From contig JBHHUM010000010.1 of the NCBI GenBank assembly GCA_046861645.1, positions 1 through 51,874 on the forward strand: 51,874 nucleotides of DNA, read 5' to 3'. Source of the stretch: Fidelibacterota bacterium (GTDB lineage: Bacteria > Fidelibacterota > Marinisomatia > Marinisomatales > UBA2128). The notes under the pieces were generated by a model, which saw only the letters and a list, made by a program, of their open reading frames with translations, was not told the origin of the DNA and did not search any database. The position numbers and the translations under genes were made by a program. Positions within the stretch are counted from its first letter, which is position 1, and each line of letters begins with the position of its first letter. Positions 9,372 through 18,036 of the stretch are shown piece after piece.

Positions 9372-11201
9372 TCAGACAGAGTCAGCCCTGAACTGCAACT
9401 CATATAGTCGTCTATATTCTCTGTTATTGCGGAGAAGCTCATCATGTGTACCCTCTTCCACTATTCTTCCACTCTTTAACACCACAATTTTGTCGGCATT
9501 TTGTACTGTGGAGAGACGATGGGCAATGACAAATACAGTCCTATCTTTCATAAGGCGTTCAATGGCTTCTTGTACTTTTTTTTCAGCTTCACTATCAAGG
9601 GCAGAGGTCGCTTCATCTAGAATAAGTATAGGTGGATTCTTTATCAGGGCACGCGCCACAGAAATTCGTTGACGCTGCCCCCCTGATAGTTTAACTCCAC
9701 GATCTCCAACCACAGCATCAAAGCTATCAGGTTGCTCTTCAATAAACCCTAATGCATTTGCCGCAATAGCAGCTTCCCGTATGGCCTCATCTTCCATTCC
9801 TTCAGTACCATAAGCAATATTATTCCTGATAGTATCATTAAAAAGGAATGTTTCTTGAGGAACAATACCCATTAACTTACGCAGAGAATCTAGTTTAATA
9901 TCCCGAATATCAACTCCATCAAGACGAACAGTCCCAGAGAGGACGTCATAGAATCTTGGGATCAAGTCTGCCATCGTCGATTTTCCTGCACCACTTTCAC
10001 CAACTACAGCCACTACATCTCCCTTTCTTATTTCCAGATTTACATTATTTAAAACAGGTTCAGTACTACCATCATATGAAAAGGAAACATTATCAAATAG
10101 AATAGATTCATTAAAACTATCCACATCGATGGCATGGTCGCTTTCTTTAATACTCCGAGGCTTTTTTAACAAACCGAATACTCTTTCCGCTGAAGCCATT
10201 GCCGTTTGCAGGTCTTGGTTGACAGTATTCAATCGACGAATTGGAGTTAATACCGAAAACATAATTAGTATAAAGCGTATGAAATCTTCCGGATTCATGG
10301 CTTTTTCTACAACCTGTAATCCACCCACCCACAAAAGGATCACACCAACAACCACACCGATGGTTTCGGTAACAGGAGTCGATCCGTACCGCAGTTTCAT
10401 CTGCCGGTAAACCAAATGACGATGACGCGCAGTTTTATTCCAGAAAAGTAACCGTTCTGTTTTTTCCGTAACAAAAGCTTTTACTACGCGAATAGCACTT
10501 AATGTCTCCATAAGCGTAGCCGTAATATCTGCAACCTGGCGAGATGTTCGCTTGACTTTTCTGCGAATACTTCTACCTACAACTGTGATGACTATACCCG
10601 CCAGAGGTAAAATCACGAGTGCTGCTAAAGTCAATTGCCAATTAATTATCAGCAGAAGAAATGTAAACATCAAAATATTTACAGGTTCTACAAGTAGACG
10701 ATGAAAACTGACCGATAAAGAGCGTCGGATGTTATTTACATCGTGGAGAACAATCGAAGTTAGTACTCCAGCCCTGGTCTTATCAAAAAAAGATAGTGGC
10801 AGGGAAGTAATATGATCAAAAAGTTTATTCCTCAGATCCCTGACCACACTAATTTGTACAAAACCAATCAATAAATTCTTCAGATAAAGGAAAAGGTTTT
10901 TCAACAGGAAGACAATGAGAATAGTAATACATAAAGCCTTTAACGTATCAAGTTGAGTTTCCTTAAGTACTAATCTGTTTGTCCAAAGCTTAAGTGACTC
11001 ATTCAGATTAAGATTGCTTGCTGATTCTAAAGCCTTTTGCCCTGCAGAAAGAGTTTCGAAATCAGTAAGAATATTGTTGATAAGAGAAGCTGTGATCCAC
11101 ACTGAGAGGGAATTAAATACCACATAAGCTAAAGAGGCAATAACCGAAATTGCTAAAATATACCAGTAAGGCTTAGCGAGTCTTAAAATGCGTTTGTACA
11201 T
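9372..11201 (-). CDS. msbA: MsbA-like ABC exporter (TMD + NBD)
   Basis: Six TM helices, GESGAGKS Walker A, LSGGQRQR signature, ILDEATSALD; LPS gene context. Confidence 0.8.
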   Translation of the reverse strand: MYKRILRLAKPYWYILAISVIASLAYVVFNSLSVWITASLINNILTDFETLSAGQKALESASNLNLNESLKLWTNRLVLKETQLDTLKALCITILIVFLLKNLFLYLKNLLIGFVQISVVRDLRNKLFDHITSLPLSFFDKTRAGVLTSIVLHDVNNIRRSLSVSFHRLLVEPVNILMFTFLLLIINWQLTLAALVILPLAGIVITVVGRSIRRKVKRTSRQVADITATLMETLSAIRVVKAFVTEKTERLLFWNKTARHRHLVYRQMKLRYGSTPVTETIGVVVGVILLWVGGLQVVEKAMNPEDFIRFILIMFSVLTPIRRLNTVNQDLQTAMASAERVFGLLKKPRSIKESDHAIDVDSFNESILFDNVSFSYDGSTEPVLNNVNLEIRKGDVVAVVGESGAGKSTMADLIPRFYDVLSGTVRLDGVDIRDIKLDSLRKLMGIVPQETFLFNDTIRNNIAYGTEGMEDEAIREAAIAANALGFIEEQPDSFDAVVGDRGVKLSGGQRQRISVARALIKNPPILILDEATSALDSEAEKKVQEAIERLMKDRTVFVIAHRLSTVQNADKIVVLKSGRIVEEGTHDELLRNNREYRRLYELQFRADSV

Positions 11202-11204
11202 CAA

Positions 11205-11648
11205 TCAGTTAGAATTTCTGCGGTAGATCATCAAGCGATGTAGAATTCCTGCCTCAGAGAATAACTCACCCTCTACCTGAAAGTCAAACCTTTCATAAAA
11301 AGGAATTACAGCTTTCTGAGCATGGAGGTAAACAGTTTCTTTAGAGTTAATATGCTCTAGAATAAACTCAAGTAACGCTTGACCTACTCCGATTCTCCTG
11401 CAATCCTTCAGGACAGCAAAACGCTCCAGTTTGATTCCCTTACCAGTTTTTCTCCACCGTGCTGTACCCACCGCTTTCCTACGGATATACGCAAGAACGT
11501 GTGAAGCTGTCTTATCAAAATTGTCCAGTTCCATCTGTGCAGGTACTTTTTGCTCCTCAATGAATACTGCTCTGCGAATGGAATAGGCTACCTCTAATTC
11601 TCTCTCTTCGGTAATCAGTTTTACGGTTATTGCAACGGATTTTTTCAT
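11205..11648 (-). CDS. GNAT N-acetyltransferase (ElaA/YjcF-like)
   Basis: IRRAVFIEEQKVP, LERFAVL, LHAQ..FYE..F.EAGILH. Confidence 0.9.
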   Translation of the reverse strand: MKKSVAITVKLITEERELEVAYSIRRAVFIEEQKVPAQMELDNFDKTASHVLAYIRRKAVGTARWRKTGKGIKLERFAVLKDCRRIGVGQALLEFILEHINSKETVYLHAQKAVIPFYERFDFQVEGELFSEAGILHRLMIYRRNSN

Positions 11649-12298
11649 CAGGGATTAAGAAATGCATAAAAGGTGATGGCCATAAAGATAAGAATTAAAC
11701 CCATAATATGCTTTTCATAACGCTCAAAAAAATGAAGTCGAACAACTTCAAATCCCTTCAAACCTAACTGAACCATTAGGACAATCCCTAATACCGTTAC
11801 TAAAAGATACGTCACCAGTACTATTAGAATGCCCTGCCATCCGGCTAAGCTGGCATTGAAGAAATAGGTATCAATCTCCATGCAAGGTGAAAAGAACATG
11901 GCAATAGCAATTGCCATTACAGCGGATCTTTTCTTTCTTTTAGTAACCTCACCTAAATGAATATGCCGGTGTTTATGATGCCGAATGTTATCCCGGATTC
12001 CTGCCAGTACATACATGAACCCAAAAATCAGAAAGATAACAGGTGCTACCATTTCCATAGCCGATTTACTTACTTCTGTCAACCTTACACCCAAAGCTCC
12101 AACCCAAACACCAATGAAGATCGAACTGGCTGTATGGGAAAAAGCTGCCAGAGCTGCAACTCTTAAGGAATGACCCTTATCCCAACCCTCAGATCTAGCC
12201 ATTACTACAATTGGCATCCAGTGGTTAGGGATAAGAAAATGGACTACGCTAAGAGCCAAGCTGCCTAAAAAAATATTCAATAACATGCCGTTTTCCAT
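11648..12298 (-). CDS. His-rich membrane protein, putative nickel/cobalt transporter
   Basis: HFLIPNHWMP, HHKHRHIH loop, FFSPCME, about 6 TM helices. Confidence 0.65.
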   Translation of the reverse strand: MENGMLLNIFLGSLALSVVHFLIPNHWMPIVVMARSEGWDKGHSLRVAALAAFSHTASSIFIGVWVGALGVRLTEVSKSAMEMVAPVIFLIFGFMYVLAGIRDNIRHHKHRHIHLGEVTKRKKRSAVMAIAIAMFFSPCMEIDTYFFNASLAGWQGILIVLVTYLLVTVLGIVLMVQLGLKGFEVVRLHFFERYEKHIMGLILIFMAITFYAFLNP

Positions 12299-12463
12299 CT
12301 TATGTCAGAAGAAATTAGCCACAACATGTCGAAATTTACATTACAAACAGAAACCTAACGGTAAGCTAAGTATGAATTTATAAGAATATTGAATCAGAAA
12401 TCTATATGAACCCATTTTCAGAATAGGACCACTTTTTATGGAAAATTATATCTGGGCTTATTC

Positions 12464-13477
12464 TTACTTCGATGTCCACTGCAGGGCAAAGCCGAGATTA
12501 GTCTGACCTAAATCGGCACCCTTCATACCAACCACAACCGGACCCCCCAGAGAAATTGTAACACCATAGCGATCAGACAACTGCATTCCAATGGAACCCA
12601 AGAGCTGTATAAACCATCCACCTGTCGCATCACTCGGATTTTGAGTCTCCCGTCGATAAACAAGGGCAAGATAAGGTGTGATCTTTTTCCTAGAAAAGCG
12701 GTGATCAATGGTATAAGTAGTCAATTGCACTACTCTGTTGTTAGACACTCCTTCATGCTTTTCGTTCCCTATCTCAATATCAAGCAAACCCTGTACCCCG
12801 AGAGTTCTCTCATTTTTCCAATTAAGCCATATCTCCCCAACTGAGCGATTTAGGAGTCTTCCTTGGATAGGATAGCCAAGATTCCTACTGGATTGCACTG
12901 ACTCATCTGCGGTAGGGAGCACAACACCCTCGTTCAAAAAGAACTGAACTTTTGTGCTTTTAGTCCTAATAGGAAGATTCCACTTCAAGCCAATTCCCAT
13001 ATCACCTATCACCCATAATGCAGTACGATAGATCGGTACTTGAACCCACAGACTTAGTTGACGTTTCAAACCCAATCCAGCAGAAATTATTACACTCTCT
13101 ACTTCAGCTTTTAAATCCACCTTCTGATAATTCATTTTCTTGACGTGGAGCTGGGATCTGTTCAAAAACACTGCTATCTGGTACTGTCCTGGTTTCAAAC
13201 CAGTCACAAAAGTTTCTCCTGCAACGGTGGGGAGTAGACCTACATTCTGAACTGCTGATGTTCCTACTTCACTTCCTCCGACCGGAGGTGGTGGAGCGTT
13301 TCAGAGAGCGCACTGGCTTAGCAATCCATTAAAAGCTAAAAGTGTCAATATAAATGAAGAAATGAGAATACCAGAGTATCGATTGCACGTCCCTTGTTGT
13401 CTAAATAAAACTAATCTGATCGAAAAATTTTTCAACTTGATAGCATTAAGAATGACATATAATCTGTTTTGTTTCAT
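12464..13477 (-). CDS. Putative secreted/outer-membrane beta-barrel selenoprotein, CxxU motif (337 aa, U59)
   Basis: ATG 13477 overlaps upstream stop (ATGA). Frame reads ...AFNGLLSQ-C-A-L-TGA(13301-13303)-NAPPPPVGGSEVGTSAVQNVGLLPTVAGETFV and continues in frame into ORF 12464..13207. SECIS-like hairpin follows the TGA. Confidence 0.8.
13267..13296 (-). promoter_or_regulatory. Bacterial SECIS-like hairpin
   Basis: CTCCAC-CA-CCTCC[GGTC]GGAGG-AA-GTGAAG; loop starts 17 nt after the TGA and begins with G. Confidence 0.75.
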
Positions 13478-14475
13478 TCCTGGTGATGATGCCACAATGC
13501 TCTCAAACTAACAGCTAACGAAATTTGATCCAGTTGTGATCCATCAATTTTACGCCATACAGGAGTATTTAGTGATAATACCGCAGAGATTTTTTCGGAT
13601 ATTTCAACCTCTATTCCAATCATCCCCTCTAGTGAAGTACCACCAGAATTAACCACCCTTACCCCTTCCCAACTATCGGACTTCTCATACCAGATATTTG
13701 CTCTTAAATATGGAAAGACAACCTTGAAAACCGGGGTCTGACGGATTATGTGCAAACTTATAAAAACTTTTTGCCCCGGTTCGTACCCGAGGTTACTTTC
13801 TGTCCAGGGAAAATCATATCTCCCTGATGCTCCCAGTACCAAAGGAAACTCTGAGCGGTACCACCATTCAAAATATAGAGAAGATATCATTACCCCTTTA
13901 CCAAGGGCAAAATGACGATGCTGGAGTGAATCGGCTCCTTCCGAAAATGGATTTACTTTATAACTTTCCCCCGATGGAAGTGTAATATCTGTGCCAAAGA
14001 ATAGCTTAGTTCCTGGACCAAATGATTGATTCCTATAAAGCCAGCGTACCCCCAATACAATATCACCAAACCCCCTGATTGACTCTGTTCGATGGTGGTT
14101 GTCCTCATGCTCAGCTTCCTGATTCCAATCCAAGAAAGGAATAGTGGTAAGTAAATTCACCTTTGGTGTCAGTCCAAATACTAAGAAAGTATTAAACGTC
14201 TGAATTCTGATATCACCAAAGTGACTATCGACCCCATCACTGGAAATGTTTGTGTTTTGCCTGGTTGAAAATCTACTTGGTTCCAGACGGGAAATCATAT
14301 AGTCACCACCTATGACCCACTGTCCTTGGGATAGTCCTAGACCCTCTGTCCCACTTCCGACCGGAAGGGTGGGATTACTTCAGAGTGGTCACTGACCCTG
14401 AAGAAAAGGTTGAGTAAAAACTATTAGAAAAATAAATAGTATAGTCCCAATTAAATGACTCAATCTTTTACGCAT
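13474..14475 (-). CDS. Putative secreted/outer-membrane beta-barrel selenoprotein, UxxU motif (333 aa, U29 and U32)
   Basis: AGGAAG RBS and ATG 14475; signal peptide MRKRLSHLIGTILFIFLIVFTQPFLQG; then Q-TGA(14389-14391)-P-L-TGA(14380-14382)-SNPTLPVGSGTEGLGLSQGQWVIGGDY in frame into ORF 13474..14298. GFGDIVLGVRW and TLPSG motifs resemble 'transporter' (PF13557-like) barrels; His-rich EHEDNHHR loop. Confidence 0.82.
14350..14373 (-). promoter_or_regulatory. Bacterial SECIS-like hairpin
   Basis: CCCA-CC-CTTCC[GGTC]GGAAG-TGGG; loop starts 17 nt after the second TGA and 26 nt after the first. Confidence 0.78.
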
Positions 14476-14586
14476 GATAGACTTCTTCCTACGATTTGAA
14501 ATTACATCCTTCGTTAAGTGCAAAACCGTGTCAGGTTTGGAAGTTGTGTTCAGCTGGAATTCCCACGAATACCATAATGCCAACGC

Positions 14587-14615
14587 TTGACAGCCATGAT
14601 CACTATTTTTATAAT
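14587..14615 (+). promoter_or_regulatory. Perfect sigma70 consensus promoter on the strand opposite the local genes
   Basis: TTGACA(14587-14592)-17 nt-TATAAT(14610-14615), immediately followed by TGTCAA (inverted copy of TTGACA). Confidence 0.45.
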
Positions 14616-14729
14616 TGTCAACACACTAGTTTTATTAATGACTGAATGAATGATAATGTATTACTTGGGAAACGACCATTAATTGCACCCAGTATTCATC
14701 AGTAAAACATGTTATCAGAAGTAACAAAT

Positions 14730-15125
14730 TCAGCTTGTATAAATCAGCTTTTGAGTTTCCGATTGATGAAAAATCATTTCAATAAGTTCGCAAGCTTTTT
14801 TACTCTCCTCATTGTGCTCCAGACGATAATAAATAGTCATTCCGTCTCTTCTGTTGGTAACTAAACCACGATCTCTCAGCCGCCTGAGCTGATGGGAAAT
14901 CGCAGACACATCTTTATTAAGAACATCTGCCAGATCGCAGACGCAGAGTTCCTCCCCTTCCGCCAAAGCATAAAGAATCTTCAAACGGGTCCCATTTCCC
15001 AGCATGGCCAAAATCTCAGCCAATCGATTCAAATCTCTCTGCTGAGTCAATTGTGACTGGAGAAACATCAGCTTCTTATGATCTACATAGGATCGGATAC
15101 ATGATCTTTCAAAAGTGTCTGTCAT
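14730..15125 (-). CDS. ArsR/SmtB family metal-sensing repressor (CadC-like)
   Basis: RLKILYAL, ELCVCDLA metal site, SAISHQLRRL, N-terminal Cys. Confidence 0.92.
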   Translation of the reverse strand: MTDTFERSCIRSYVDHKKLMFLQSQLTQQRDLNRLAEILAMLGNGTRLKILYALAEGEELCVCDLADVLNKDVSAISHQLRRLRDRGLVTNRRDGMTIYYRLEHNEESKKACELIEMIFHQSETQKLIYTS

Positions 15126-15143
15126 TAGTCAATCCCTTATTAT

Positions 15144-15653
15144 CTAGTTCTCAATTGATACCACTTTTGTCTTTAGATAAGTTTTCCTGACATCTCCCAG
15201 ACAACATCTTCCCTTAGGATTCAGTATTTCACAGGAACACAAGTCTTTCCTGACCTTTTCACGTATCTCATCCTCAATTGTTGAATGATTATTTTTCACA
15301 AAATCCTGCTCAATTTCTGACCGGGTATGTTGAAAACAATAACACACTAAGAGTGGTTCTACTTTCTCTTTTAGCCCAACACGAACCAATAAGTCTAATT
15401 TGTTAATTACAAGATTATTGTCTGGAATATAGTATACCGTAGAGTCTTCAGGATTGGTACAATAGAAACCATCTGTTATTTTATTATAATCCGACCATTG
15501 CTCACTTGTTAAGGCTTTTATAGTGATTGCCTTCACTGGAAGACCTTTTATTCCACATGTTGGACAGAAACCGTTTCTCCTTACGTCTTTTTCTGATAGG
15601 ATTGTGCAGCAATCAATCTCTGCAACATCACCGTTCAACTTATGATTCTCCAT
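15144..15653 (-). CDS. Cys-rich CopZ N-terminal-like (zinc / 2Fe-2S BFD-like) metallochaperone
   Basis: CC, CPTCG, VCYCF, CSCEILNPKGRCC; ATG 15653 preceded by a GGGAAG purine run. Confidence 0.8.
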   Translation of the reverse strand: MENHKLNGDVAEIDCCTILSEKDVRRNGFCPTCGIKGLPVKAITIKALTSEQWSDYNKITDGFYCTNPEDSTVYYIPDNNLVINKLDLLVRVGLKEKVEPLLVCYCFQHTRSEIEQDFVKNNHSTIEDEIREKVRKDLCSCEILNPKGRCCLGDVRKTYLKTKVVSIEN

Positions 15654-16239
15654 TAACTTCCCTTTTCCCTCCAGAAATAGCACGATAGCCCATCTTTTTC
15701 ACAAAGGATTCGATTTCATCTTTGGTTACTGTTTGCTGATTGAATGTACAGACCATCGTCTTATTATTATAGTTTACTTGGCAACTGACAATACCCTCAA
15801 CAGCATTCAAACCTTTTTCCAGACCCAAAGCACATCCATTGCAGGTCATACCTTCTACATTCCAAACTTCAACTTCTTCCCCTTTACTCTTACTCTCGCC
15901 TTCTTCTGCAAAAAGATCATATCCAAAATATGGAAACAAGAGTAGAGCGATCACCAGAGGCGTAATTCCCAAAAGTATCCGTTTTTGATTTTTCTTATGC
16001 TTCATGGAATTCTCCTTATCCAAATCACAACATGCCTCGTCTTCACTTTTCCTGAATAACCTTACATAGCCCCAACCTAACATTCCCAAAGCTAAGAGAG
16101 AAAAGTAGGGTCGTATGGGTTCAATAAAAGCAAACATACCTAACGAAGTTGAGCCAACTGAAAGAGCGATTAATGGTCCTGTACAGCAGAGCGTCGCCCC
16201 AAAAGCAGCCAGGACAGATGTAATTACCGTTTTCATCAT
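15640..16239 (-). CDS. MerT-like mercury transporter fused to an HMA (MerP/CopZ) domain
   Basis: ATLCCTGP in TM1, EPIRPY, ACCD loop, C-terminal VEGMTCNGC. Confidence 0.88.
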   Translation of the reverse strand: MMKTVITSVLAAFGATLCCTGPLIALSVGSTSLGMFAFIEPIRPYFSLLALGMLGWGYVRLFRKSEDEACCDLDKENSMKHKKNQKRILLGITPLVIALLLFPYFGYDLFAEEGESKSKGEEVEVWNVEGMTCNGCALGLEKGLNAVEGIVSCQVNYNNKTMVCTFNQQTVTKDEIESFVKKMGYRAISGGKREVNGES

Positions 16240-16264
16240 TTTTGTATTTTCTGAACTAATAGAC

Positions 16265-16286
16265 TATTTGAATATATGTTCAAATA
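16265..16286. promoter_or_regulatory. ArsR/SmtB-type operator overlapping a sigma70 promoter
   Basis: Inverted repeat TATTTGAA-tatatg-TTCAAATA; the minus strand has TTGCAT-17 nt-TATATT across it, upstream of merT-HMA. Confidence 0.8.
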
Positions 16287-16342
16287 CTATAATATGCAAG
16301 GGACATTTTCCTCATCGCTTTCTCTACGTTGTTACATGAAGA

Positions 16343-17215
16343 CTAAGGAAATATTGCAGATTGTTCCTTTGGGAATAAGGTGTAGAGCAAATCTTTGCTT
16401 GTGACATCGCCCTTCTGGATAGCAGCATGTATATAGACAACAGGACAACCACAAGCCTCACAGGAGGCATTCTCTGCAAAAGTACACGGCTTCTTCACAT
16501 TAAAATGGACATCAAAGGCAATTGCTGTATCTCGATAAATGCAGTTTTTTGAAATTTCCTTACAGTAACTTGATCTAAACAATTCTATAGCTTCACGGGA
16601 ATGCAGCAGAATACCGGGATGTTCATTATGTAACTTTAGCAGCTCATCTACAGCTTGATCTCTCCTTTTTAAATCGACTCGTAATGGGTCTTTTGGTCTA
16701 CCTACATGAAACCCAACCAGGACTCCTAAAGCCCCGGTGGATCGAACAAGATTCGGGAGGAGATTAATGTAATCAACTGTAATAGAAGTGAAAGTTGTAG
16801 CCAGGGCGAAAGAACCTCTGTCAAGATTATTGATATTTTGAAGGGCTAAATCGAAAGTTCCCTTACCACGTAAACTATCGTGTACATCCTGAGGACCTTC
16901 AATCGAAACTAAGAGTCCTCCTGATAAACCTGTTGGGATCGGAACTACTCCGGAAGTAGCCACGGCATTCCGGGAGAATAGCCTCATAGCTTGCTGCAGG
17001 AGAGTTGGTTTCAACAATGGTTCCCCTCCAATCCAGAATGCTGAGCGAATACCATAACTGTCACGGACATTTTTAAGTCTGAGCAAAAATTCTTCATCAC
17101 TTAAATCAGTAGGTATATGAGATATATTCGTATAGAAATAGCAATGTTGACATCTTAAAGGACACTCACTAGTGAGATCAAAAATACCAATTGGTCGATT
17201 CTGCAGATTCATCAC
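16343..17215 (-). CDS. Radical SAM protein with Cys-rich C-terminus
   Basis: CPLRCQHC, GGEPLL, HDSLRGKGTF; C-terminal C...C.....CEACGC. Confidence 0.88.
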   Translation of the reverse strand: MMNLQNRPIGIFDLTSECPLRCQHCYFYTNISHIPTDLSDEEFLLRLKNVRDSYGIRSAFWIGGEPLLKPTLLQQAMRLFSRNAVATSGVVPIPTGLSGGLLVSIEGPQDVHDSLRGKGTFDLALQNINNLDRGSFALATTFTSITVDYINLLPNLVRSTGALGVLVGFHVGRPKDPLRVDLKRRDQAVDELLKLHNEHPGILLHSREAIELFRSSYCKEISKNCIYRDTAIAFDVHFNVKKPCTFAENASCEACGCPVVYIHAAIQKGDVTSKDLLYTLFPKEQSAIFP

Positions 17216-17301
17216 GGATTAAATTAAGATACTGTGAATGAAATTTCTCGCTATCTGTATCCCTTTAAAATCAAGCACTCTACGAGAATATCATCTAAAC
17301 T

Positions 17302-18036
17302 TTAGAGAGTAAGTATTGAATCCTCGGAAAAAAGGACTTGTGGTGATAAGCCCAACTGTTCATAAAGTCCTGGTGGTACGCCAATATCAGCTAAATAAAG
17401 TTGACCAGTATAATCTTTTGCACCCGGTGTCAAAAGACCCTTCTTGGGTAAAGCAAGGGTCATGGTGGCACATGCGCGGATACAGGACTTGTATGGCTTA
17501 CCCGTTGTAGAATCTAGTCCAGAGGGGACATCCAGAGAAAGAACTTGGGTATTCCCAGAACGGTTAATTTCGTCAAGTACATGAGCAGCAACTCCCCGGG
17601 GTTCACCGTAGAGACCGTACCCTATGATCGCATCTATGATTAGATTAGATTTGTAAAATACCTCCAACCTATTACTTATGTCAGCCAAGATGATTTTTAT
17701 TGGGAGCTTTTTCAAGGTTAACCAGCGGACTTTTGGAATCGTCTTAAGTTTAGAAGGTGGAGTTGCTAAAATAACTGTCACCTGAACCCCCCTATTGTAG
17801 AGGTAGCGGGCAGCAACCATCCCTCCACCACCGTTATTTCCCCCTCCACAGGTGACTACAATATTGTGCAATCCCAATCCATCCAGGAGCCTCAAAGCCA
17901 AATCAGCTAAATTTCGCCCAGCGCTCTCCATCATCTGCTCTAAGGAAATCTTATATTCTTCAATCATAAGGCGATCCACTTCGCGCATCTGGTCAGCCGT
18001 TATAGCAGGTAGTGAAACTTTATTCATGAAAGTCAT
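17302..18036 (-). CDS. nnrE: NAD(P)H-hydrate epimerase (stand-alone YjeF_N)
   Basis: QMREVD, MMESAG, CGGGNNGGGG, IDAIIGYG, SLDVPSG, ADIGVP. Confidence 0.9.
   Translation of the reverse strand: MTFMNKVSLPAITADQMREVDRLMIEEYKISLEQMMESAGRNLADLALRLLDGLGLHNIVVTCGGGNNGGGGMVAARYLYNRGVQVTVILATPPSKLKTIPKVRWLTLKKLPIKIILADISNRLEVFYKSNLIIDAIIGYGLYGEPRGVAAHVLDEINRSGNTQVLSLDVPSGLDSTTGKPYKSCIRACATMTLALPKKGLLTPGAKDYTGQLYLADIGVPPGLYEQLGLSPQVLFSEDSILTL

Follow-up and report, generated by a model that had tools for sequence, protein, structure and literature searches.

Two neighbouring genes on the minus strand of a 51,874-nucleotide stretch of DNA from a Fidelibacterota bacterium (assembly GCA_046861645.1, contig JBHHUM010000010.1; the whole stretch is referred to as the window) encode predicted outer-membrane barrels that carry selenocysteine (Sec, U) behind their signal peptides. 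They follow a MerT-HMA fusion, a chaperone of the CopZ N-terminal type (CopZ-N) and an ArsR-type regulator, and many of their relatives in the phylum Marinimicrobia/Fidelibacterota lie beside genes known from mercury (mer) operons. These observations make it rather likely that the two barrels let soft metals of the mercury type in through the outer membrane and hand them on, as one step of a relay. The features of the two barrel genes are the following.

13474..14475, minus strand: barrel 1, from its translation with TGA read as Sec, AlphaFold2 and Foldseek
14380..14391, minus strand: Sec-Pro-Leu-Sec codons of barrel 1 (UGA-CCA-CUC-UGA), with in-frame TGA at 14391-14389 and 14382-14380
14353..14368, minus strand: selenocysteine insertion sequence (SECIS) hairpin of barrel 1, GGUC loop at 14362-14359, from covariation over 14 and then 48 sequences
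12464..13477, minus strand: barrel 2, a divergent paralogue, from its translation and hhalign against the barrel-1 family profile
13301..13312, minus strand: Cys-Ala-Leu-Sec codons of barrel 2 (UGC-GCU-CUC-UGA), with in-frame TGA at 13303-13301
13274..13289, minus strand: SECIS hairpin of barrel 2 (CCUCC-GGUC-GGAGG), its loop starting 17 nt past the UGA, from the same covariation set

Recoding of in-frame UGA codons

The TGA codons of both barrels encode selenocysteine, as shown by the comparison of relatives, the covariation of a hairpin and the Sec machinery of the genome. Translated in this way, barrel 1 reads MRKRLSHLIGTILFIFLIVFTQPFLQGQ-U-PL-U-SNPTLPVGS..., with the motif Q-U-P-L-U directly past the signal peptide, and barrel 2 reads ...LLAFNGLLSQ-C-AL-U-NAPPPPVGG..., with Q-C-A-L-U after the signal peptide; deprived of this upstream part, the barrels would have no signal peptide. 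U-P-L-U follows the signal peptide in 12 of 12 relatives from named genomes (pattern GQ-U-PL-U-[SG]N..LPVGS), and a regular expression for U/C-x-x-U matched 35 of 36 further loci, the match in locus L075 being spurious and its motif being located later. Every full-length relative examined keeps the frame, the motif and the flanking residues through both TGAs. Among 146 match rows from the phylum, counted by hand, 121 have two in-frame TGA codons, six have one, one has TAA and 18 have none; all of these 18 begin at profile position 32 or later, short of the motif, and for three of them (L089, L090, L091) the motif was found upstream.

The hairpin of barrel 1 (CUUCC-GGUC-GGAAG) has a loop that starts 17 nt past the second UGA and 26 nt past the first. 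In the set of 48 distinct sequences, 94.4% of the cells at its six pairs are paired, and four of the six pairs show compensatory change, with 55 cells in which both sides are changed; the pair of columns 33:42 alone is seen as CG, UA, GC, UG and AU. None of 500 shuffles reached the observed covariation score or paired share, and slid registers were at most 58.3% paired. The compensating changes are silent ones in the Leu and Gly codons of L-P-V-G. A scan of 11000-17500 against Rfam returned no SECIS family and just two chance-level matches, and the folding z-scores of single sequences are weak (-2.1 and -0.7), so it is comparison and covariation that carry the case for the hairpin.

Cysteine takes the place of Sec in several relatives, with CALC in P0017, CAMC in L068, CPLU in L079 and L093, and C[PA]AC forms in six more distant proteins. 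The relatives of barrel 2 read CALU (L071, L097), CAMC (L068) and CALC (P0017). The Cys forms, which need no SECIS, retain the peptide [U/C]xx[U/C]xNPxLP, and since they keep ..NP.LP the peptide appears to be constrained in its own right and not by the RNA alone. The genome also encodes the Sec machinery, with selB (395 bits), selA (531 bits), selD (390 bits) and tRNA-Sec (63.9 bits) all above their cut-offs. The selD gene (G000:C34:25008-25934) itself holds an in-frame TGA, and SelD may be a selenoprotein here.

The opposing view, that the TGAs are ordinary stops at which short leader open reading frames (ORFs) end while the barrels start downstream and no selenoprotein is made, has next to no chance of being right. 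It can draw on public gene calls, which do start downstream and leave out the N-terminus in 11 of 12 non-self database matches, as well as on the lack of a SECIS family in Rfam and on the weak z-scores. ORFs starting downstream would, however, be without a signal peptide, and plain stops are contradicted by the conservation of frame, motif and flanks across both TGAs, by the covarying hairpin, by the Cys homologues and by the complete Sec machinery.

Predicted structure of the barrels

An AlphaFold2 model of barrel 1 from a 20-sequence alignment reached a mean predicted local distance difference test score (pLDDT) of 79.1 and a predicted template-modelling score of 0.76, with antiparallel strands from residue 52. 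In a Foldseek search it matched FapF (E 4.8e-11) and the COG4313 channel Pput2725 (4rl8; template-modelling score 0.77 on the target), both of which are 12-stranded barrels. In the case of barrel 2, alignment with the barrel-1 family profile gave 97.6% probability (E 3.3e-12, 273 columns), which at the level of profiles makes it a true paralogue of barrel 1. Both genes are predicted to encode proteins that are exported and form 12-stranded channels of the COG4313/FapF fold in the outer membrane.

Five histidines of barrel 1 are near-invariant (H85, H127, H128, H186, H188; motifs DxHHRTE and HRHFALG); barrel 2 is without both motifs. Judged by strand order, the conserved histidines would lie in extracellular loops 1-3 and the Sec pair at the periplasmic end. 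In Pput2725 (4rl8), about 14 residues ahead of strand 1 are described, in the available part of the source, as lying folded inside the barrel at its periplasmic side (PMC4493636).

Linkage to mer-type genes among relatives

The original prediction tied the barrels to metal genes, and the neighbourhoods of their homologues agree: in 10 of 12 loci from named genomes, MerT/HMA, CopZ-N or ArsR genes stand upstream on the same strand. Locus L021 has MerR, MerA and Thioredoxin_3 (PF13192) upstream of the barrel, L020 has the order MerT-HMA, MerB, DUF302, ..., CopZ-N, barrel, ArsR, and L028 the order MerA, MerT-HMA, barrel; L027 has no metal genes beside its barrel. With NCBIfam models, the MerA proteins next to a barrel scored 551 (L021), 507 (L028) and 542 bits (L068) against a cut-off of 454, and MerB of L020 scored 197.5 bits against 193, while the flavoproteins of L026, L075 and L099 stayed under the MerA cut-off. 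MerR was found in L021 and, by tblastn only, in L075. Redoxin genes lie downstream of the barrel in L023 and L026.

Among 40 further loci of the phylum searched by tblastn, some of which are on the same contigs as the 12 named-genome loci, 17 have at least one mer-type neighbour, with weak or partial matches only in L069, L076, L080 and L101. Within this set, such a neighbour is present at 13 of the 15 loci whose barrel is at least 38% identical to barrel 1. The presence of MerA and MerB in the same clusters makes Hg(II) or organomercury the probable metal of the barrel-1 subfamily.

More distant members keep different company. In 16 distant or unlinked loci scanned with Pfam, six have HMA, HMBD or YHS neighbours and one (L079) has HupE/UreJ; the YHS-type locus L080 also has a multicopper oxidase, in L083, L085 and L104 the HMA/HMBD neighbour is a periplasmic lipoprotein that carries CxxC, an HTTM/DCC1 oxidoreductase gene is upstream in L090 and L095, and another four neighbouring genes encode small, secreted proteins rich in Cys. 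At the 10 Cys-form loci scanned, out of 22 found in metagenomes, the gene immediately upstream encodes an HMA-thioredoxin fusion in eight cases, a thioredoxin in one and MerT-HMA in one. L107 has the order MerT-HMA, MerA (493 bits), HMA-Trx, barrel, YdjM.

Further genes recur around the barrels. A DUF3179 gene stands right after the barrel or barrels in four relatives (L019:3281-4327, L068:9088-10107, L071:5787-6776 and L097:9501-10490), confirmed by Pfam in L019 and matched by tblastn in the other three; DUF3179 is given as a selenoprotein family (UxxC/T) in a 2022 review. A gene for a YdjM-family inner-membrane protein adjoins the barrels of three subfamilies (L029:7998-8546, L083:7880-8416, L107:4533-5507). 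The MerA-like flavoprotein gene L075:13528-14871, beside DUF302, has one in-frame stop; with TGA read through, it is recognised as a disulfide reductase and scores 359 bits to MerA, under the cut-off. The stop may be a further Sec codon or may interrupt the gene.

Gene cluster of the window

The remaining features of the cluster are listed here from the putative operator in the direction of transcription.

16266..16285, strand not assigned: putative ArsR/SmtB-type operator palindrome, from sequence symmetry and its recurrence ahead of related clusters
15640..16239, minus strand: MerT-HMA fusion, PF02411 48.5 bits (cut-off 32.9), PF00403 37.5 bits
15144..15683, minus strand: Cys-rich cytoplasmic metallochaperone of the CopZ N-terminal type, NF047645 CopZ_Nterm_CC 104.4 bits (cut-off 100)
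14730..15125, minus strand: ArsR/SmtB metalloregulator, NF033788 87.3 bits (cut-off 55), PF01022 65.8 bits
14476..14729, minus strand: decayed remnant of a thioredoxin-like (Thioredoxin_3-type) gene, aligned with the genes of L018 and L019
11648..12298, minus strand: His-rich six-helix membrane protein with loop RHHKHRHIH, an ORF with a look-alike search

All cluster genes share the minus strand and are ordered operator, MerT-HMA, CopZ-N-type, ArsR, remnant, barrels and His-rich protein. Profile matches and ORFs bear out the inventory that had been drawn up from the letters of the sequence (operator, merT-HMA, CopZ-like protein, ArsR, two Sec barrels and His-rich protein, all co-oriented), with two designations that are weaker than the genes themselves. 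The regulator is an ArsR protein by NF033788 and PF01022 and has a thiolate site of Cys9 and ELCVCDLA; its description as CadC-like comes from our reading of Cys9 and C-V-C in helix 3. The His-rich membrane protein is likewise present, and its description as Ni/Co-type comes from a language-model look-alike search alone.

MerT-HMA has a CC pair in the first of three transmembrane helices and a second CC in a cytoplasmic loop, and its C-terminal, periplasmic HMA domain carries GMTCNGC, the topology being presumably that of MerT. These Cys pairs are invariant in an alignment of nine sequences. By PF02411 and PF00403 the window thus has the MerT and MerP-like HMA of a mer operon; the match to the MerTP_fusion equivalog NF033556 (121.7 bits) falls under the cut-off of 180. 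The Cys-rich chaperone also matches PF18423 zf_CopZ (36.3 bits), and an alternative start at the ATG at 15653 is possible. The ATG of barrel 2 overlaps the stop of barrel 1 (ATGA).

In a protein-atlas search the His-rich protein scored 0.95-0.98 to UreH-like, NicO and DsbD_2 clusters, which is a lead only, and it had no family match of the NicO/RcnA/UreH type in Pfam (E 0.01) or NCBIfam. It is possibly a UreH/NicO/RcnA-like metal permease. The gene is found beside the barrel in this genus only, the one orthologue following barrel 1 in L018, and it occupies the place where four relatives have DUF3179. Direct comparison with the HupE/UreJ neighbour of L079 gave no similarity, and a relationship between the two was rejected.

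Directly upstream of the operator, at 16343-17215 on the minus strand, lies a radical SAM protein gene with a C-terminal Cys cluster (PF04055, 43.4 bits; weak SPASM maturase matches). It was discarded as a member of the system, as no counterpart was found beside barrels in 52 loci searched.

Operator and regulation

The palindrome ATTTGAACATATATTCAAAT at 16266-16285 is a perfect 7-6-7 repeat, read as ATTTGAAC-ATAT-ATTCAAAT, and occurs once in the window against a chance expectation of 0.02. No second copy was found ahead of barrel 1 with up to three mismatches allowed. Of 14 clusters inspected, 11, among them that of the window, have a full palindrome of this type ahead of the first cluster gene; L019 and L068 have one half-site each and L026 has none. 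The proteins of the palindrome-bearing clusters are just 30-50% identical. By eye, the palindrome overlaps the -10-like hexamer TATATT (16276-16271) of a promoter TTGCAT-17-TATATT, hexamers which the promoter scan did not score. Its symmetry and recurrence are what would be expected of an ArsR/SmtB-type operator conserved ahead of regulated genes. Promoter-like sites as a whole are not in excess in the region (16 found, 15.9 expected). A perfect sigma-70 consensus (TTGACA-17-TATAAT, 12/12) is located at 14587-14615 on the plus strand, inside the dead thioredoxin-like gene and antisense towards arsR.

Missing reductase and a decayed thioredoxin-like gene

The absence of merA, merB and a P-type ATPase from the window is borne out, and for MerA and MerB it extends to the whole genome. 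The window genome (94.5% complete) has no MerA above the cut-off, its best match (336 bits against 454) being a lipoamide dehydrogenase at 563 bits; neither MerB nor HgcA was matched in the whole genome, and the sole heavy-metal P-type ATPase is on another contig. The cluster itself has no MerR-type regulator, its regulator being of the ArsR/SmtB type. MerA is absent from four of four genomes of the genus, the window genome counted, and is present in two other tandem-barrel genomes, in one of them adjacent to the barrels. The notion of a reductase-less pathway therefore does not hold for the family, in which MerA stands beside the barrel in L021, L028 and L068 and MerB is found in L020. The absence in this genus looks like a local loss, as judged from the genomes compared, and the cluster here is a trimmed version of a mer-type cluster, since the genus lacks MerA while other tandem-barrel genomes have it.

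What had been taken for a gap at 14476-14729 does lack an ORF, but it is not a plain gap. These 254 bases align with the small, intact thioredoxin-like genes of L018 and L019 and form a decayed copy, with no start codon, a lost CxxC, TAA and TAG stops, and indels. The PF13192 gene of L021 occupies the corresponding position. The intact gene of L019 (1966-2217) reads MKAEFFSAGCRLCE...ASECVDGRCC. In L018 the corresponding gene (742-982) has an in-frame TGA at the position of a Cys in L019 (SASD-U-TDGSCC against SE-C-VDGRCC) and, to go by this alignment, may encode a further small selenoprotein.

Spread of the family

A word-indexed search returned 13 proteins including the window's own. Of the 12 others, 11 are without the N-terminus, and the twelfth (P0012) reads W-PL-W, as a gene call with code 4 renders TGA. 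The family is consequently hard to see in annotation, its gene calls being truncated at the N-terminus. When 1.84 billion representative proteins were searched with a profile, 268 matched at E<=0.001, 58 at 1e-10 and 20 at 1e-30. Among 33 N-termini inspected, seven have W-x-x-W, 10 begin at [M/L]PVG immediately past the motif and two slightly further on, six have C[PA]AC and eight have CC or CxC variants.

The 12 related loci from named genomes belong, where a lineage is given, to Marinimicrobia, Neomarinimicrobiota or Fidelibacterota metagenome-assembled genomes. In the phylum, 137 of 401 sampled genomes contain the family at E<=1e-10, the threshold for presence. High-quality genomes, of which 190 were sampled, account for 65 of these, and 58 of 114 genera are represented. 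The 22 metagenome loci with the Cys form C-P-A-C were found with a two-sequence alignment, a seven-sequence alignment of Cys forms being too diverse for the metagenome scan. A tandem second barrel occurs in three other genomes (L068, L071, L097). On the same-genus contig L018 (1003-2835), barrel 1 is followed by the His-rich permease and GNAT genes and there is no barrel 2; the second barrel was therefore lost in L018 or regained in the lineage of the window. Among public sequencing runs, the only ones found to contain DNA of window positions 12400-16300 are four DNA runs from a single study, two of which may be its source; they are labelled as hydrothermal vent metagenome, a habitat label and not independent evidence.

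A proposed outer-membrane step and its alternatives

That the Sec barrels form an outer-membrane step feeding MerT-HMA, as the original prediction had it, is the reading best supported by the mer-type neighbours, the HMA/HMBD lipoproteins and the HMA-thioredoxin fusions; the neighbourhoods speak for the step itself, and metal binding, transport direction, hand-off partners and the identity of the metal are what we infer from it. A single SECIS hairpin directly downstream would recode the UGA codons, and the mature N-terminus would present a soft-metal ligand pair, Sec-x-x-Sec in barrel 1 and Cys-x-x-Sec in barrel 2. The barrel would admit a soft metal species through the outer membrane, most likely mercury, as Hg(II) or in a neutral or organic complex, and possibly Cu(I), with the conserved His cluster in the predicted extracellular loops as the entry site. 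At the periplasmic end or in the lumen, where the N-terminus of the solved COG4313 channel lies, the diselenolate of barrel 1 or the selenolate-thiolate of barrel 2 could capture the metal and pass it by ligand exchange to the periplasmic HMA of MerT-HMA, then to the Cys pairs of MerT and on to the cytoplasmic chaperone of the CopZ-N type. Control of the cluster would lie with the ArsR repressor, acting at the conserved operator. In relatives, the relay would end at MerA or MerB. As MerA is missing from this genus and the gene of the periplasmic thioredoxin-like helper has decayed, the fate of the metal here may be either sequestration or use.

Several observations weigh against this proposal. 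No mer-type neighbour was found by tblastn at 23 of the 40 phylum loci, and Pfam gave no metal-related neighbour at five of the 16 distant ones (L078, L084, L086, L087, L105). The structural evidence is uneven, with residues 23-33 of the barrel 1 model below a pLDDT of 50, so that the modelled position of the N-terminus is not fixed, with a marginal PF13557 match, which covers 73 of the 242 profile positions at 22.7 bits where the cut-off is 22, and with no Pfam match to barrel 2 at E 0.01. None of the public sequencing runs containing the stretch is an RNA run, and no expression data were found. COG4313 channels are thought, according to the available part of the source, to take up hydrophobic molecules and not ions (PMC4493636). 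By analogy, a preference for hydrophobic solutes would suit neutral Hg complexes. Finally, import of Hg(II) would be harmful where MerA is missing, so the metal or the direction of transport may differ in this genus, and the frequent thioredoxin partners fit a redox role equally well.

Such a role, in which the UxxU or CxxU pair would be a redox centre exchanging electrons with periplasmic thioredoxin-like proteins, for the reduction of envelope or extracellular substrates or for a redox-gated channel, is regarded as unlikely. Thioredoxin-fold genes are indeed the commonest partners of the barrels: genes of the Trx_3 type lie upstream in L018, L019 and L021, redoxins downstream in L023 and L026, an HMA-thioredoxin fusion precedes eight of the 10 Cys-form barrels scanned, and a thiol-disulfide oxidoreductase of the HTTM/DCC1 type is upstream in L090 and L095. 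In addition, most known UxxC/UxxU selenoproteins are redox proteins, as far as the available part of a 2026 review of prokaryotic selenoproteins goes (PMC13188914). However, a metal-binding HMA domain is either part of the thioredoxin protein or encoded alongside it, and the clusters hold MerT, MerA, MerB, ArsR, MerR and CsoR-type genes, next to which a thioredoxin would more simply keep metal ligands reduced; in the window its gene has decayed while both barrels are intact. Alternatively, the barrels could handle Cu(I) or another thiophilic metal in uptake or periplasmic buffering, the mer-like names of the neighbours being misleading. A chaperone of the CopZ N-terminal type, the distant members near a YHS protein and multicopper oxidase (L080), near HMBD/HMA lipoproteins or near HupE/UreJ (L079), the lack of MerA and MerB in the genus, and the score of MerT-HMA below the MerTP equivalog cut-off (121.7 against 180) would all be in keeping with copper. 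True MerA and MerB directly in the barrel-1-type clusters of relatives and the match to MerT (PF02411) above its cut-off argue against it, and a metal other than mercury seems improbable to us for these barrels.

Selenolates bind Hg very tightly, and this would suit a sink. The barrels might then be a trap or an exit and not an entry, holding toxic metal at the outer membrane or releasing periplasmic complexes, an idea that also gains from the cost that import would seem to have in a genus with no reductase. Yet the constant partners are of the import type (MerT and periplasmic HMA), the cytoplasmic MerA and MerB of relatives need the metal inside, and one stoichiometric site per barrel would make a poor sink; we consider a trap or exit highly improbable. 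The entry and hand-off step proposed above can be taken to a wider and more tentative form, in which a phylum-wide, selenium-dependent outer-membrane gate for mercury-type metals exists in Marinimicrobia, with two selenocysteines as the first residues of the barrel. We would give this wider version a real but lesser chance of being true than of being false.

Significance and novelty

Marinimicrobia are dominant in dark and low-oxygen ocean waters, and members have been reported with mercury-methylation genes, to follow the available part of the source (PMC8163782). If the gate exists, the supply of selenium would be coupled to the uptake, detoxification and possibly methylation of mercury, and the mer paradigm would gain its first dedicated outer-membrane component. 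If the barrels are an entry step at all, mercury-type relays would have a specific passage through the outer membrane where textbooks show diffusion, this passage would depend on selenium in a major ocean phylum, and the selenium and mercury cycles would be linked at the molecular level. The peptide [U/C]xx[U/C]xNPxLP would then be a new candidate metal-capture ligand motif, and its gene a marker for metagenomic surveys of mercury handling.

The barrel family is large and apparently undescribed. Neither barrel is matched by any model of NCBIfam release 20. The terms PF13557, COG4313, phenol and porin are absent from the available part of the 2026 review, whose UxxU entries there are a Prx-like protein, the NF041115 HMA protein and FmdB (PMC13188914). 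MerT selenoproteins are mentioned, with no barrel, in the available part of Haft and Gwadz 2022 (bioRxiv 10.1101/2022.07.06.499078). No description of the family was found in the literature searched on selenocysteine in Marinimicrobia, on UxxU selenoproteins and on the MetA-pathway of phenol together with MerT, a search that left paper supplements outside its scope.

Comparison with known systems

The barrels resemble the COG4313/PF13557 channels (Pput2725, 4rl8) and FapF (5o65/5o67) in their predicted 12 strands, their length of about 270 residues and the segment ahead of strand 1. Those channels are without an N-terminal Sec/Cys pair, share 10-13% identity with the barrels and, according to the available text, are tied to the uptake of hydrophobic organics or to amyloid secretion and not to metal genes (PMC4493636). 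A second resemblance is with the large barrel selenoprotein GSU2204/MtrB-PioB (NF041027), the sole outer-membrane barrel found in the list of the 2026 review, as far as that list was available (PMC13188914). This is a porin-cytochrome-type barrel of extracellular electron transfer, which has no UxxU and belongs to a different family; its NCBIfam model did not match the barrels of the window.

With the MerP-MerT relay, the system proposed here would share the exchange of the metal between paired soft ligands towards the cytoplasm, and it has MerT and HMA in the cluster and MerA, MerB and MerR in relatives. In that relay MerP is periplasmic, MerT/C/E/F/G are in the inner membrane and the outer membrane is crossed by diffusion, and the available part of the mer review names no outer-membrane and no Sec-bearing component (PMC8261052). 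Unlike mer operons, the window has a regulator of the ArsR type, and its genome is without MerA.

The closest parallels in the use of selenium are the selenoproteins of NF041115 (UxxU HMA), NF045683 (MerT/CopZ-fusion) and NF045877 (CopZ-N-terminal C-U), which have Sec at ligand positions of the Hg/Cu type, as given in the available part of the review (PMC13188914); NF041115 shares the UxxU spacing of barrel 1. These proteins are soluble or located in the inner membrane, whereas the window has Sec on an outer-membrane barrel and Cys in the counterparts, which score below the respective cut-offs (42.9 against 95, 78.9 against 375 and 73.5 against 190 bits). Selenium in the handling of soft metals is thus already known from the curated Sec forms of MerT, HMA and CopZ-N, and the new element is that selenium is here placed on an outer-membrane channel and that this arrangement is spread through a phylum.

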